Below, piece by piece: positions 2,946 through 63,846 of a stretch of DNA of 64,000 nucleotides. Each line of letters opens with the position of its first letter. Position 1 is the first letter of the stretch. The translations under genes and the position numbers were made by a program. A model generated the notes under the pieces. That model saw only the letters and a list, made by a program, of their open reading frames with translations, was not told where the DNA came from and searched no databases. The stretch lies in the NCBI RefSeq assembly GCF_002854065.1, contig NZ_CP024147.1; one strand, given 5' to 3'. The stretch comes from Escherichia coli (GTDB lineage: Bacteria; Pseudomonadota; Gammaproteobacteria; Enterobacterales; Enterobacteriaceae).

Positions 2946-3070
2946 TGGGTTTGAAATGATGACTCCCGTGCCTGCAGGAAATCAATGCCACCTGAAACAG
3001 AGAATAAAAAAGGGTGCAGGAGGCCAAACCATCACAATTCAATACGCGGGGTTTTACCCCCGCGTGGTGG

Positions 3071-3223
3071 CTACTTCTTCGATTCGTAAGCGAGAACTGC
3101 CTTAAACTCCATACCACGCTCTCTGATACTCAACTCACATAACGAGTCGCCTACCATGAGCGTGAATCCCAGTACTGTACAACACAGTACTATGATTGCC
3201 ACAAGGGCATATTTTGTTAGCAT
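3071..3223 (-). CDS. hokX: Hok/Gef-family membrane toxin (type I toxin-antitoxin), 50 aa
   Basis: [50 protein letters not shown]; hydrophobic helix plus SLCE...AYES motif typical of Hok; GGAGG Shine-Dalgarno (rc of 3229-3233) 6 nt upstream of ATG 3221-3223. Confidence 0.75.
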
Positions 3224-3330
3224 GTCTTGCCTCCCTGCAAAGAAGAGACTAACATCCGAATTGCTACGTTCGAACGCGAGCCTCAGGTTGATAGAAATAT
3301 CGCCTGGGGCTTTTGTCCATCTGGAACCTC
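3224..3330 (+). ncRNA. sokX: Putative Sok-type antisense RNA opposite the hok mRNA leader (coordinates approximate)
   Basis: Expected from hok/sok locus architecture; exact ends not determinable from sequence alone. Confidence 0.2.
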
Positions 3331-3430
3331 GCGAATGCTTAACGCCAGACAGCCTCAAGCACCCGACGCCATTCTATACCTGATAATTCTTCCAGCGGCG
3401 TTCACGTTTAAAATCAGGAATGCTGCTCGC

Positions 3431-4294: not shown

Positions 4295-6007
4295 TTAATC
4301 CCACAAATCGCGCGCCGGATCGAGCACCGGGCGAATGATGCCCGCACGCACCGTAAAGTCGCCGAAGCCTTCACCCGCTTCGCGCTCTTTCGCCCAGCGC
4401 CCTATCAGTTCATCAAGCGACGCCAGGATTTCCGGCTCGGTGATGTTTTCTTTATACATCCGTGGGATACGTGTCCCAATGCGGTTGCCGCCAAGATGCA
4501 GGTTGTAGCGACCCGGCGCTTTACCCACCAGGCCCACTTCCGCCAGCATCGCGCGACCACAACCGTTCGGGCAGCCTGTTACACGCATCACGATATGCTC
4601 ATCGCTGACACCATGTTTCGCCATTAAATTATCGATGTTGTCGATAAAAGACGGCAGGAAACGCTCCGCTTCCGCCATCGCCAGCGGGCAAGTCGGGAAT
4701 GACACGCAGGCCATTGAGTTTTCACGCTGCGGCGTGACGGCATTCATTAACCCGCTCTCTTTGGCGATCCTCTCGATCTTCGCTTTCTCACTTTCCGGCA
4801 CACCGGCGATGATCAGATTCTGGTTCGCCGTAATGCGGAAATCACCTTTGTGGATCTTTGCGATCTCCAGCAGGCCGGTTTTCAGCGGACGCCCCGGATA
4901 ATCAAGGATGCGACCATTTTCGATAAACAGCGTCAGGTGCCAGTTATCATCAATGCCCTTAACCCAGCCAATACGATCTCCGCGTCCGGTAAACTCATAC
5001 GGGCGAATCGGCTCGAATTTGATCCCCGCGCGACGTTCCACTTCCGCTTTAAATGTCTCAACACCCACGCGCTCCAGCGTGTATTTGGTTTTGGCATTTT
5101 TACGATCGGTACGGTTACCCCAATCGCGCTGAGTCGTCACGACGGCTTCCGCCACCGCCAGGGTATGCTCCAGCGGCAGATAACCAAACTCGCTCGCCGT
5201 GCGGGCGTAGGTTTTCTTATTACCGTGTTCGATGGAAAGCCCGCCGCCCACCAGCAGGTTAAAGCCTACCAGCTTGCCGTTTTCGGCGATTGCCACGAAG
5301 TTCATGTCGTTGGCGTGCAGATCGATATCGTTCTGTGGCGGGATCACTACCGTGGTTTTGAATTTACGCGGCAGGTAGGTCTGGCCGAGGATCGGTTCTT
5401 CATCAGTGGTGGCGACTTTTTCCTGATCGAGCCAGATCTCCGCATACGCGCGGGTACGCGGCAGCAGATGTTCCGAGATTTTCTTCGCCCACTCGTACGC
5501 TTCTGCGTGCAGCTGCGACTCGTAAGGGTTCGAGGTGCAGAGTACGTTACGGTTCATGTCGTTAGCGGTCGCCAGCGCATCAAGACCGACCGAGTGCAGC
5601 ATCTGGTGCACCGGTTTGACGTTCTTTTTCAGAATGCCGTGGAACTGGAATGTCTGGCGGTTGGTCAGGCGAATGCTGCCATAGATGGTGTTTTCACCGG
5701 CAAATTTATCGATCGCCTGCCACTGTTTGGTGGTGATAACTCCACCCGGCAGACGGCAGCGCAACAGCATCGCATGGCGCGGCTCCAGCTTCTGTTCAGC
5801 ACGTTCGGCGCGGATGTCGCGGTCATCCTGCTGATACATGCCGTGGAAGCGGATCAGCAGGAAGTTGTCGCCCTTAAAGCCGCCGGTCAGACCGTCGTTT
5901 AAATCTTCCGCAATGGTGCCGCGCAGGTAGTTGCTTTCAAGCTTCATGCGCTCGGCGTCTGTCAGTTTTCCTTCGACCACTAAAGGCCCTGGATGTTTTT
6001 CGCTCAT
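4295..6007 (-). CDS. cysI: Sulfite reductase hemoprotein beta subunit CysI, 570 aa
   Basis: ORF translation; siroheme/4Fe-4S Cys cluster CPNGC near C-terminus. Confidence 0.95.
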
Positions 6008-15394: not shown

Positions 15395-16180
15395 TTAGCG
15401 CACTAAATAACCGCCATCAACTACTAATAAATGCCCGTTGACATAATTCGATGCCGGACTTGCGAGGAATACGGCTGCGCCCATTAAATCCTGAGTATCG
15501 CCCCAACGGTTTGCCGGAATATGATCAAGAACGCGCTGATTGGTTTCTGGATTACTACGTGTCGCCAGCGTAATATCTGTTGCATAATAGCCAGGGGCGA
15601 TACCATTTACCTGAATATTATATTGACCTAGTTCATCACAATAAGCTTTGGTGAACCCGGCAAGAGCATGTTTAGTGGCAGAATATGCAGGTGACCATTG
15701 TCCACCTAAGTAAGAGAATAATGAACAGATATTAATTATTTTACCGCTTTTCTGCGGGATCATAATTTTTGCCGCTTCATAGCTTAACTCGAATGCGGCG
15801 GTCAGGTTCACATCAATCATCGGGTCCCAGTCGGCACGACCGAAGTCCAGCACCTTATTCAGCTTACAAATACCGGCATTGTTAACCAGAATATCGACGG
15901 TACCGAAACGTTCGCAACAGGCGGCGATTATCTTCTGCGGCGCGCCTTCTGCGGTGATATCCACCTGCATGAAGTCCACCTCAACACCCTGTTTTTCAAT
16001 CATTTCCTTTGTTTCGCCGTTATCTTTGACGAAGCTAGGAATAAAGACATTTGCGCCTGCTTTGGCCAACGCCATGGCAAATGCCTGGCCTAAACCGCTA
16101 TTCCCGCCGGTAACAATTGCGGTTTTACCTTTCAGGGAGAAAAAATCCATTGAGAACGCATTGAGAGATTCGATTGACAT
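15395..16180 (-). CDS. ygcW: Short-chain dehydrogenase/reductase, 261 aa
   Basis: TGGNSGLGQAFA Rossmann motif; start at MSIESL with GGAG Shine-Dalgarno. Confidence 0.88.
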   Translation of the reverse strand: MSIESLNAFSMDFFSLKGKTAIVTGGNSGLGQAFAMALAKAGANVFIPSFVKDNGETKEMIEKQGVEVDFMQVDITAEGAPQKIIAACCERFGTVDILVNNAGICKLNKVLDFGRADWDPMIDVNLTAAFELSYEAAKIMIPQKSGKIINICSLFSYLGGQWSPAYSATKHALAGFTKAYCDELGQYNIQVNGIAPGYYATDITLATRSNPETNQRVLDHIPANRWGDTQDLMGAAVFLASPASNYVNGHLLVVDGGYLVR

Positions 16181-20366: not shown

Positions 20367-20520
20367 AGCATTCTCTGTGAAGTGGATAATTGTTAATTAT
20401 TGCAGATCCTGCCGCAACAATCATGTCTTATTAACATTCTGTTACAGGCAGGTTTAAGGCAAAAAGTGCATTAGATCATAAAGAATAAAATGAAGCGGCG
20501 TATTATGTTTTAAGGAATTA

Positions 20521-20692
20521 ATGAAAAAGGATTTAAACATGCTCAGGATATTCATCGTAATTATATTTATTTTCAATTTATCAGGCTGTGGATATAACGA
20601 TATTCAAACCTATGATGAGCAGGTTAACGCCTCCTGGTCTGAGGTATTAAATCAATATCAACGTCGCGCCGATCTTATTCCTAATCTTGTCG
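20521..20692 (+). pseudogene. lemA: LemA-family lipoprotein gene truncated after about 57 codons by IS1
   Basis: MKKDLNMLRIFIVIIFIFNLSGCGYNDIQTYDEQVNASWSEVLNQYQRRADLIPNLV then IS1 end; lipobox LSGC. Confidence 0.7.
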
Positions 20693-20747
20693 GGTGATGC
20701 TGCCAACTTACTGATTTAGTGTATGATGGTGTTTTTGAGGTGCTCCA

Positions 20748-21023
20748 GTGGCTTCTGTTTCTATCAGCTGTCCCTCCTGTTCAGCTACTGACGGGGTGGT
20801 GCGTAACGGCAAAAGCACTGCCGGACATCAGCGCTATCTCTGCTCTCACTGCCGTAAAACATGGCAACTGCAGTTCACTTACACCGCTTCTCAACCCGGT
20901 ACGCACCAGAAAATCATTGATATGGCCATGAATGGCGTTGGATGCCGGGCAACCGCCCGCATTATGGGCGTTGGCCTCAACACGATTTTCCGCCATTTAA
21001 AAAACTCAGGCCGCAGTCGGTAA
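20748..21023 (+). CDS. insA: IS1 InsA, 91 aa
   Basis: [43 protein letters not shown]... Confidence 0.95.
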
Positions 21024-21445
21024 CCTCGCGCATACAGCCGGGCAGTGACGTCATCGTCTGCGCGGAAATGGACGAACAGTGGGGATACGTCGGGGCTAAA
21101 TCGCGCCAGCGCTGGCTGTTTTACGCGTATGACAGGCTCCGGAAGACGGTTGTTGCGCACGTATTCGGTGAACGCACTATGGCGACGCTGGGGCGTCTTA
21201 TGAGCCTGCTGTCACCCTTTGACGTGGTGATATGGATGACGGATGGCTGGCCGCTGTATGAATCCCGCCTGAAGGGAAAGCTGCACGTAATCAGCAAGCG
21301 ATATACGCAGCGAATTGAGCGGCATAACCTGAATCTGAGGCAGCACCTGGCACGGCTGGGACGGAAGTCGCTGTCGTTCTCAAAATCGGTGGAGCTGCAT
21401 GACAAAGTCATCGGGCATTATCTGAACATAAAACACTATCAATAA
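20942..21445 (+). CDS. insB: IS1 InsB frame (expressed as InsAB' by -1 frameshift at the TTTAAAAAAC motif)
   Basis: 167-aa InsB translation; slippery A-run near 21000. Confidence 0.9.
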
Positions 21446-21462
21446 GTTGGAGTCATTACCTG

Positions 21463-21846
21463 ATGCTGGCCCCAAAAAATAAAAACGCTAAAGTGAAAAA
21501 ACAAAAGAAGACTCCGCAGGTTCGTGAATCAGGACGAAATTCATTGTTTGTCGTGATGCTGATAATTATTGTGGGATGGTGCCTGGTGTTCGCCAGTATT
21601 AAAGATATTGCATTCATCTCAACAATTATTGGGTTAATTGATCATTTTATCGGTCCAATAACCATTGCTGGCATCGTTCTGCTGATCATTGTGGCCAAAT
21701 TTACTGGCAATCTTAAGCTGGGATCAGGAGAAAAAAGCAACAGGAAAACGGGGAATCGTAATGCTCACTCTCGCTCTTCGTCGAGAAATTCTTTCCGCGG
21801 TGGTGGCGGTTCTTCAGGAGGCGGCGGTTCATCCGGCCGTTGGTGA
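21463..21846 (+). pseudogene. 3' remnant of a TPM-domain (YgcG-like) membrane protein gene; TPM domain missing
   Basis: Two TM segments and a Gly/Ser-rich tail GGGGSSGGGGSSGRW paralleling the ygcG C-terminus; begins directly at the IS1 end. Confidence 0.5.
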
Positions 21847-22745
21847 TCGTAATGCGCTTAATCTTTATTCTATTCACTTTGTGGTGTCTTCCTGGGCTTG
21901 CCCAGCAAATTGCTGTGCCAGAACTGCGCCAACAGGTGACCGATATTACTGGTACGTTAAGCACTTCTGAACAACAATCACTGACACAGCAACTGCAGGA
22001 TATTACACATAAAACACGGGCGCAGGTCGCTGTATTAGTAGTGCCGTCTACCGGAGACGATTCCATTGAACAATATGCTACAAGGGTTTTTGATAGCTGG
22101 AAACTGGGAGATAAGCAGAGAAACGATGGTATTTTACTTCTGGTTGCCTGGGAGGATCATGCTGTTCGTATTGAGGTTGGCTACGGGCTGGAAGGGGTGG
22201 TTACCAACCTGCAAGCGGCGAAGATTATCAGGGATATATTGATCCCTGCCTTCAAAAGTGATGACCTGATGGGTGGATTAACACTGGCAAGCGAAAATAT
22301 CGGCGCACTTCTGTTGAATGGTGAATTACCGGAAGACAGGGGGGATTATTACAGTATCAATCCCCCTATTCCATTATCGCTTGCTGTAATTATATTGCTG
22401 GCGGTACTTTCATATTTTATTGTTTTTACCGATCCGTCGAATTTACCCTGGATCACTCTCACTGGCGCCATTTACGGGATGGTATTCCTCTATGTTGCCG
22501 AGCCAGGACCATGGACCAATTTAATCGTTGCCTGCGGTATGTTAACGCCTTTTGCGATCGTACCACTGGTTATTTTTTGGCTTATCGTCAATAAAAAGCT
22601 ACGCGCCAAATACAAAAAACTCAGTAAAGAAAGAGCTACAAGAAAAGGTTCTTCTTCATCCTCTTCCGGTGGAGGCTCAAGTGGCGGCGGATTTAGCGGC
22701 GGGGGCGGTTCTTCTGGAGGTGGCGGCGCATCCGGCCGCTGGTAA
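21840..22745 (+). CDS. ygcG: TPM-domain membrane protein YgcG (start uncertain, 21840 or 21852)
   Basis: ORF translation; signal peptide, TPM domain, TM helices, Gly/Ser-rich tail ending SGRW. Confidence 0.85.
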   Translation: MVIVMRLIFILFTLWCLPGLAQQIAVPELRQQVTDITGTLSTSEQQSLTQQLQDITHKTRAQVAVLVVPSTGDDSIEQYATRVFDSWKLGDKQRNDGILLLVAWEDHAVRIEVGYGLEGVVTNLQAAKIIRDILIPAFKSDDLMGGLTLASENIGALLLNGELPEDRGDYYSINPPIPLSLAVIILLAVLSYFIVFTDPSNLPWITLTGAIYGMVFLYVAEPGPWTNLIVACGMLTPFAIVPLVIFWLIVNKKLRAKYKKLSKERATRKGSSSSSSGGGSSGGGFSGGGGSSGGGGASGRW

Positions 22746-22804
22746 CTCAACCATAAAAAATGCCAGCCCGGAGGCTGGCATTTTTAAATCAGATAAAGTC
22801 AGTC

Positions 22805-24118
<1,314 letters not shown>

Positions 24119-40317: not shown

Positions 40318-40686
40318 AATAAAAAAAGGGAGCACTGTATTCACAGTGCTCCCGGTTCGTTTCGCAGCATTCCAGCTACATTTGTTGCTCCCTGCTCATC
40401 CTTGACAACTTTTCCTCTGGCCTTGCGGCCAATCGTTCATCCTGAACTATTGCTTCCTGCTCACACCACCCCGATGTGATACTTCATCCTGAAGTGTCCC
40501 TGGCCTTCCTGACCCACCGAATCATCCTGACCGGTTCTCATTCTCCATCCTGGAGGTGTCCTTTAACGCGTCCTGCGTCATCCTCTTCGCTTCATCCAGA
40601 AGCCTTTCCCTGAAACACCATCCTGGTGTGTCCTTCAGAAGTGTCATCATCCTGATGTTCACTTCGTTGTCTGACTCCCTGTCGAC
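40318..40686 (-). ncRNA. csrB: CsrB small RNA (CsrA-sequestering), about 369 nt
   Basis: Minus strand starts GUCGACAGGGAGUCAGACAACG..., carries well over a dozen CAGGA(U/A)G-type GGA motifs (seen as CATCCTG on plus strand), ends in hairpin plus U-run at 40321-40358. Confidence 0.92.
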
Positions 40687-58857: not shown

Positions 58858-59063
58858 ACTTCCTGAGCCGGAACGAAAAGTTTTATCGGAATGCGTGTTC
58901 TGGTGAACTTTTGGCTTACGGTTGTGATGTTGTGTTGTTGTGTTTGCAATTGGTCTGCGATTCAGACCATGGTAGCAAAGCTACCTTTTTTCACTTCCTG
59001 TACATTTACCCTGTCTGTCCATAGTGATTAATGTAGCACCGCCTAATTGCGGTGCTTTTTTTT
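58858..59063 (+). ncRNA. gcvB: GcvB small RNA, about 206 nt
   Basis: ACTTCCTGAGCCGGAACGAAAAGTTTTATCGGAATGCGTGTTCTGGTGAACTTTTGG... with GU-rich TGTTGTGTTGTTGTGTTTG tract and terminator GCACCGCCTAATTGCGGTGC plus T8; divergent from gcvA. Confidence 0.92.
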
Positions 59064-62056: not shown

Positions 62057-62156
62057 TGCCTGATGCGCTACGCTTATCAGGCCTACATAACTCCTGCAAT
62101 ATTTTGGATTTGCATGATTTGTAGGCCGGATAAGGCGTTCACGCCGCATCCGGCAT
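62057..62156. repeat. Pair of REP elements (BIME-like) between tcdA and mltA
   Basis: GCCTGATGCGCTACGCTTATCAGGCCTACA and TGTAGGCCGGATAAGGCGTTCACGCCGCATCCGGCA. Confidence 0.75.
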
Positions 62157-63548: not shown

Positions 63549-63625
<77 letters not shown>

Positions 63626-63658
63626 ATTAAAATTTGATGAAGTAAAGCAGTACGGTGA

Positions 63659-63735
<77 letters not shown>

Positions 63736-63769
63736 ATCAAAATTTGATGAAGTAAAAGCAGTACGGTGA

Positions 63770-63846
<77 letters not shown>

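Follow-up and report, generated by a model that had tools for sequence, protein, structure and literature searches.

The lemA-eno interval of the window

The window analyzed here, a stretch of 64,000 nucleotides of Escherichia coli DNA, carries between queE and eno the arrangement lemA'-IS1-'TPM-2 (127 codons)-TPM-3, that is, the 5' end of a LemA-family lipoprotein gene, a complete insertion sequence, the 3' end of a TPM-domain gene and an intact ygcG-like gene (Table 1). IS1 and the genes were identified by exact identity to the known element and genes, which is independent of chance statistics.

Table 1. Features of the window and of the intact reference island (positions are those of the window unless a genome is named)
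Feature	Position	Strand	Details
lemA 5' remnant (LemA-family lipoprotein)	20539-20692	+	51 codons plus 1 nt from the PGAP start; 57 codons from ATG 20521
9-bp IS1 target, single copy left	20684-20692		ATCTTGTCG; flanks IS1 on both sides in PK-F-10132, same site
IS1 (IS1B type), complete, 768 bp	20693-21460	+	100% identity to the CUWW06 and 100416 copies, same site
IRL of IS1	20693-20715		GGTGATGCTGCCAACTTACTGAT
insA, 91 aa	20748-21023	+	NCBIfam NF033558 positions 1-81; IS1/IS1595 zinc-binding domain
insB' reading frame	20942-21445	+	NF033558 positions 76-199, 143.8 bits
IRR of IS1	21438-21460		Reverse-complemented, GGTAATGACTCCAACTTATTGAT
Deletion junction	21460-21461		Last IRR base joined to second nucleotide of TPM-2 codon 255
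TPM-2 3' remnant, 127 codons	21463-21846	+	Residues 256-382; transmembrane segments, Gly/Ser tail ending GGGGSSGRW
TPM-3, ygcG-like, intact	21843-22745	+	300 aa from GTG 21843; 297 aa from ATG 21852; PGAP-called in relatives
Bidirectional intrinsic terminator hairpin between TPM-3 and eno	22756-22785		13-pair A/T-flanked stem
CsrB	40318-40677	-	Rfam gathering-threshold match
GcvB	58858-59063	+	Rfam gathering-threshold match
ES036 sRNA	62079-62121	-	Rfam gathering-threshold match
Three tandem tRNA genes	63549-63843		Rfam gathering-threshold match; PGAP: tRNA-Met in CUWW06
lemA, intact	APEC E19019		202 aa; Pfam LemA PF04011 at residues 32-195, E = 9e-47
TPM-1	APEC E19019		297 codons; PGAP: TPM domain-containing; weak NCBIfam Psb32 match
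TPM-2	APEC E19019		382 aa; TPM domain at residues 23-149
TPM-3	Intact island		300 aa; TPM domain at residues 29-152
Junctions of the locus			lemA/IS1; IS1/GGCTCAAG; IS1/TGATGCTGG

The element is the only copy of IS1 in the 64-kb window and shows no difference from annotated IS1B copies; in two RefSeq genomes PGAP labels identical copies as IS1B transposase with programmed frameshift. Its length of ~768 bp, its imperfect inverted repeats of ~23 bp (GGTGATGCTGCC... and GGTAATGACTCC..., matching at 18 of 23 positions) and its insA and insB' frames, joined by a -1 frameshift at the A6C motif AAAAAAC (20999-21005), are those of the IS1 family. In these respects, and in its 9-bp target duplications, it is the same as the IS1B and IS1A isoforms of E. 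coli and Shigella. The insA product scored 90 bits against the IS1 transposase model (NF033558). The 8- to 9-bp target-site duplication typical of the family is absent from the window, where the left flank ends in ...ATCTTGTCG and the right flank begins with TGATGCTGG..., with no direct repeat, and is present in strains PK-F-10132 and FORC_042. An earlier note on this DNA, made from its letters alone, had reported a complete 768-bp IS1 with intact insA and insB and flanks that are not a target-site duplication, and both statements agree with the boundaries, repeats, model matches and flanks found here. The same note had named a duplication under other IS1 boundaries as an observation that would speak against it. 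Shifted boundaries that make a duplication of the octamer TGATGCTG, found at 20695 and 21461, are ruled out by PK-F-10132, in which a 768-bp element lies within a perfect 9-bp repeat and the canonical boundaries are confirmed.

Upstream of IS1, the lemA remnant still has its signal peptide and LSGC lipobox but no more than roughly 20 initial residues of the LemA domain. Its reading frame enters IS1 for one codon (GGG, the first base of which is still lemA) and then meets a TGA stop. The LemA domain itself (Pfam PF04011, ~149 positions following an N-terminal membrane anchor) was not recovered from the fragment, which ends at residue 51. A weak partial match to the NCBIfam MamQ model NF040966 (E = 3e-4) is also obtained with intact LemA. 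Judged by its sequence, the fragment is a gene remnant and not a functional LemA member. Downstream of IS1, where the junction reads ...CATTACC/TGATGCTGG, the 127-codon open reading frame begins two bases past the end of the element. Its product matches residues 256-382 of the TPM-2 frame of strain CUWW06 exactly and differs at one residue from the intact TPM-2 of APEC E19019. A Pfam scan found no TPM domain (PF04536, ~125 positions) in this frame; in the parent protein, the domain lies in the part that is gone (Table 1). The interruption of lemA after about 57 codons and the reading of the downstream frame as a 3' remnant with transmembrane segments and a Gly/Ser-rich tail, both put forward earlier, are thus correct, the former when counted from the upstream ATG. 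With their defining domains gone, both remnants should be non-functional. The next gene, TPM-3, the start of which overlaps the TPM-2 stop codon (GTGA), has a full PF04536 match (residues 29-152, E = 2e-37).

The intact island contains three tandem TPM genes

The region was compared by megablast with 5,426 complete E. coli genomes, with APEC E19019 (locus L002) serving as the annotated reference. Between queE and eno, the intact island consists of lemA followed by three tandem TPM genes, TPM-1, TPM-2 and TPM-3, and 1,103 of these genomes, O157:H7 and CFT073 among them, carry it at ≥80% coverage. The fragment beside IS1 had been attributed to the first of two tandem TPM genes; it is instead what is left of the second of three, the first being wholly gone. 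The comparison also bears on the reading that lemA is naturally short, that the 127-codon frame is a complete native gene and that nothing has been deleted. Given the 1,103 genomes with the full island, a lemA of 202 codons in the intact state, the match of the frame to residues 256-382 of a longer protein and the presence of the missing 1,928 bp in the closest relative, we regard this reading as refuted, with next to no probability left to it.

PGAP marks TPM-1 as incomplete, with a missing C terminus, yet its frame stays open for 297 codons (L002 3330-4223; L001 5024-5917) and has at its end the GGGGSSGGGGASGRW tail that is also found in its paralogues. The label is probably an annotation artefact rather than the sign of a pseudogene. 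This Gly/Ser tail, GGGGSSGGGG(A/S)SGRW, is a conserved C-terminal motif, nearly identical in all TPM paralogues of the island and in K-12 YgcG (window 21790-21846 and 22650-22745; L006 2465-3337), whereas the remaining sequence is divergent.

The queE-eno interval (window 20367-22804) is polymorphic in E. coli, with at least three gene contents: yqcG and ygcG (the K-12 type), lemA with three TPM genes (the 1,103 genomes above), and lemA with TPM-1 and a 363-bp hypothetical gene. The yqcG-ygcG locus of K-12 occupies the same position, and the membrane protein with a TPM domain that it encodes shares the C-terminal GGGGSSGGGGASGRW tail, but the locus has a single TPM gene, a small yqcG in place of lemA, and nucleotide identity of ~70% along a short segment. 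As a divergent allele and not a deletion derivative, it is ruled out as either the ancestral or the derived form of the arrangement in the window. The literature on ygcG and on LemA/TPM function yielded nothing usable beyond the mention of a mobile-element insertion hotspot.

The deletion starts at the last base of IS1 and removes 2,139 bp

In the coordinates of L002, the left flank of the window ends at 2861 and the right flank starts at 5001, so that the island lacks 2,139 bp; compared with a simple insertion, 2,148 bp are gone, namely, the 2,139 bp and the second 9-bp target copy. The missing DNA comprises lemA codons 52-202, all of TPM-1, and TPM-2 codons 1-254 with one base of codon 255. 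The earlier note had proposed an IS1-mediated deletion of roughly 1 kb and had suggested sizing it against genomes with the intact operon. That comparison supports an adjacent deletion that starts exactly at the right end of IS1 but about doubles its size.

Relative to CUWW06, 1,928 bp are absent. Window position 21461, immediately after IRR, aligns to CUWW06 L001 6695, and the downstream 42.5 kb of the window is collinear with that genome in the same orientation. The junction of the IS1 right end with TPM-2 was found in none of the 5,426 complete E. coli genomes, in no metagenome contig and in no GTDB representative genome. No other sequence in these collections has it, which makes it a strain-specific allele but not a new kind of thing, and it could act as a clone-specific marker.

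A junction confined to one assembly, in a clade where IS1 is highly repeated, might also be produced if IS1 reads were collapsed and the left junction in lemA was linked to an IS1 right junction from elsewhere. A random mis-join of this kind would not give a collinear flank, whereas the right flank observed here comes from ~2 kb downstream at the same locus, with its orientation unchanged, and collinearity with CUWW06 extends over the remainder of the 64 kb. Since such an artefact would also require a real second IS1 at TPM-2, we consider it extremely unlikely.

Three states of IS1 at the same lemA site

A search with the left junction identified IS1 at this very nucleotide in three genomes, PK-F-10132, CUWW06 and 100416, and the left junction is identical in all three and in the window. 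PK-F-10132 displays the simple-insertion state: its 768-bp IS1 has the same site and orientation and is bordered on both sides by a perfect 9-bp duplication, ATCTTGTCG. This copy (L004 6199-6966) is of the IS1A type and differs from that of the window at 9 positions, and the left flank differs by 1.6%. By these differences, PK-F-10132 is not the direct ancestor of the window; its insertion is probably an independent one at the same site, which would make the site an IS1 hotspot. For the window's own lineage, we infer that the original 9-bp duplication was likewise formed.

CUWW06 and 100416 show an intermediate state. Their right flank starts at L002 3073, with 211 bp and the 9-bp copy deleted (~220 bp). 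Between the window and CUWW06 there are 8 SNPs over the 64 kb and two structural differences, an extra IS1 in ygcW of CUWW06 and the 1,928-bp gap beside the lemA IS1 of the window. In CUWW06 and 100416, the small deletion has one and the same endpoint, and TPM-2 carries an identical W-to-stop change; this shared endpoint and nonsense codon place both changes at the internal node of the three-genome tree, that is, in the common ancestor. Before the last step, lemA and TPM-2 (by its nonsense codon) were already dead, and the TPM-1 frame is still open in CUWW06. A two-step deletion in the window lineage, first of ~220 bp and then of 1,928 bp, is most likely, an order that follows from parsimony over the three genomes with possible recombination ignored.

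The larger deletion wipes out any trace of the smaller one, so that the intermediate is invisible from the window sequence alone, and one could suppose that one event led directly from a simple lemA::IS1 insertion to the window, with no relation to the 220-bp deletion in CUWW06 and 100416. The distances among the three genomes make this very unlikely. The window and CUWW06 are the closest pair, at 8 SNPs, against 18 for the window and 100416 and 16 for CUWW06 and 100416, and the common endpoint of CUWW06 and 100416 means that the internal node should carry the small deletion; otherwise, the same endpoint must have arisen twice or have been moved by recombination.

Other insertions were seen at or near the locus. 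FORC_042 has a further IS1A between lemA and TPM-1, with the duplication GAAAAATTT, and M172-1 carries an IS4 within the island. The extra IS1 of CUWW06 lies in ygcW at the 9-bp target TGACGAAGC (window 16027-16035); ygcW of the window is intact and encodes 261 aa. Together, the ygcW insertion and the lemA event indicate that IS1 activity has been ongoing since the window and CUWW06 diverged (8 SNPs in 64 kb).

Origin of the deletion

Both deletions start exactly at the last base of IRR, and neither shows microhomology at its breakpoints. An anchored start of this kind, the lack of microhomology, and an IS1 left untouched together with its left junction are the signature of IS-mediated adjacent deletion; in addition, the flank reached by the deletion is collinear with the original locus and keeps its orientation. 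Microhomology-driven slippage is ruled out, as no sequence is shared at the breakpoints. Recombination between the two copies of the octamer TGATGCTG is also ruled out, since IS1 itself would have been lost.

We therefore favor, with a probability of roughly three in four, an IS1 insertion into lemA followed by IS1-mediated adjacent deletion in two steps. IS1B would have transposed into codon 52 of lemA, the first gene of the four-gene island, and duplicated the 9-bp target ATCTTGTCG. Its transposase would then have driven intramolecular transposition, either abortive or replicative, from IRR into nearby DNA of the same molecule: the IS end would be nicked and joined to a target on that molecule, IS1 and the left junction would be kept, and the DNA between IRR and the new target would be discarded. 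A first event of this type may have removed the right-hand target copy and ~211 bp of lemA, leaving the state kept in CUWW06 and 100416. A second, in the window lineage, may have taken a further 1,928 bp, comprising the rest of lemA, all of TPM-1 and TPM-2 codons 1-255 (the last of these in part).

Transposase-mediated deletion and recombination between two IS1 copies yield identical sequence products. A second IS1 in direct orientation could have entered TPM-2, duplicating TGATGCTGG, and RecA-dependent recombination between the two copies could then have removed one of them together with the interval, giving exactly the sequence observed. IS1 is very active in the clade, with at least 39 to 40 IS1 places in CUWW06 and 100416 and a fresh ygcW copy in CUWW06 that is absent from the window, and recombination between identical IS copies is a frequent cause of missing duplications (PMC11708052). 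Each nested deletion would, however, need its own insertion and its own recombination, with both new copies in the same orientation, and no IS1 right end was found at the TPM-2 site in the 5,426 genomes or in metagenome or GTDB-representative contigs. Nested deletions that share one IS end as their anchor are classically seen with adjacent deletion. We thus judge recombination between two copies to be unlikely and continue with adjacent deletion from IRR.

IS1 deletions of the gal region were reportedly described by Reif and Saedler in 1975, and replicative deletions by IS1 are said to have been reported by Turlan and Chandler in 1995. The IS1-adjacent deletions known from E. coli, in gal and in clinical nfsB isolates (PMC10569738), likewise keep IS1 and one junction, lack a duplication, start exactly at the IS1 terminus and run a variable distance into the flank. 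The clinical deletions span 11 to 66 kb and fit an abortive transposition model (PMC10569738). The one in the window differs from these nfsB cases in its size (2.1 kb), in having no obvious selected phenotype and in affecting DNA that was largely inactivated already. IS-adjacent deletions without target duplications are often small at first and then extended, and in the long-term evolution experiment IS150 has gone through insertion, small deletion and extension with no duplication (PMC11708052). The same three stages appear here with a member of a different family (IS150 belongs to the IS3 family) and in natural isolates, where they would be represented by separate strains rather than by a time series. 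The locus may thus offer a clean natural example of a course, from insertion through small adjacent deletion to extension, known until now chiefly from laboratory evolution.

All components of this history are already known: IS1B and its 9-bp duplication, deletions adjacent to an IS, and an accessory island that varies between strains. Together they represent ordinary genome decay, in which a variable accessory island of lemA and three TPM genes is reduced in an E. coli clone rich in IS1. The loss says only that the LemA/TPM island is dispensable in the window lineage.

Target choice at lemA and at the TPM-2 endpoint

Two IS1 isoforms that differ by 9 nt sit at the identical nucleotide and in the same orientation in lemA of unrelated lineages. 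At the other end, the first 8 nt of the right flank (21461-21468), TGATGCTG, equal IRL positions 3-10 (20695-20702); an 8-mer of such kind occurs at 5 of 3,268 candidate endpoints, giving a post hoc P of ~0.0015. A better 9-mer match, GTGATGCTG, lies 92 bp downstream and was not used as an endpoint. The octamer could reflect either chance or a target preference for homology to the IS end and hints, if weakly, at a sequence-guided choice. That both the lemA site and the TPM-2 endpoint are sequence-directed IS1 targets rather than random hits strikes us as quite doubtful. If true, the locus would show, in nature, that targets of adjacent deletions can be chosen by homology to the IS end, and would help to account for the mobile-element insertion hotspot near ygcG that is listed in a published survey (bioRxiv 10.1101/527788).

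Transcription of TPM-3 and eno

It had been suggested earlier that an active IS1 upstream of ygcG and eno could alter the transcription of both. For eno, this does not apply: the gene (22805-24103) lies on the minus strand, convergent with TPM-3, and the two are separated by a strong terminator hairpin, which lies in a segment of 71 nt with a folding energy of -23.6 kcal/mol (z = -4.5). Since eno is convergent and lies behind this bidirectional terminator, IS1 is not upstream of it. The insertion has no bearing on the expression of eno or pyrG.

IS1 creates fusion promoters in other contexts (PMC9330008). A consensus scan from 20728 to 22900 found no outward-facing sigma-70-like site on the + strand, the total number of sites being that expected from shuffled sequence, and manual inspection found no -10 hexamer at suitable spacing from the TTGGAG within IRR. 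Because IS1 now separates TPM-3 from the lemA promoter region, with no replacement promoter visible, TPM-3 is probably poorly expressed, as would be expected from the polarity of IS1 insertions together with the negative consensus scan.

Other features of the window

A hok/sok toxin-antitoxin locus lies between iap and cysH (3049-3364; Rfam sok at 3208-3364, minus strand), the interval which we take to hold the cas genes in K-12. The 64-kb window contains no CRISPR type I-E repeats, and its ygcE-queE spacer is without the CRISPR array seen in K-12. In strain 100416, an IS421 is inserted at the position corresponding to window 3049-3060. CsrB, GcvB, ES036 and the tRNA genes (Table 1) are ordinary E. 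coli core content.
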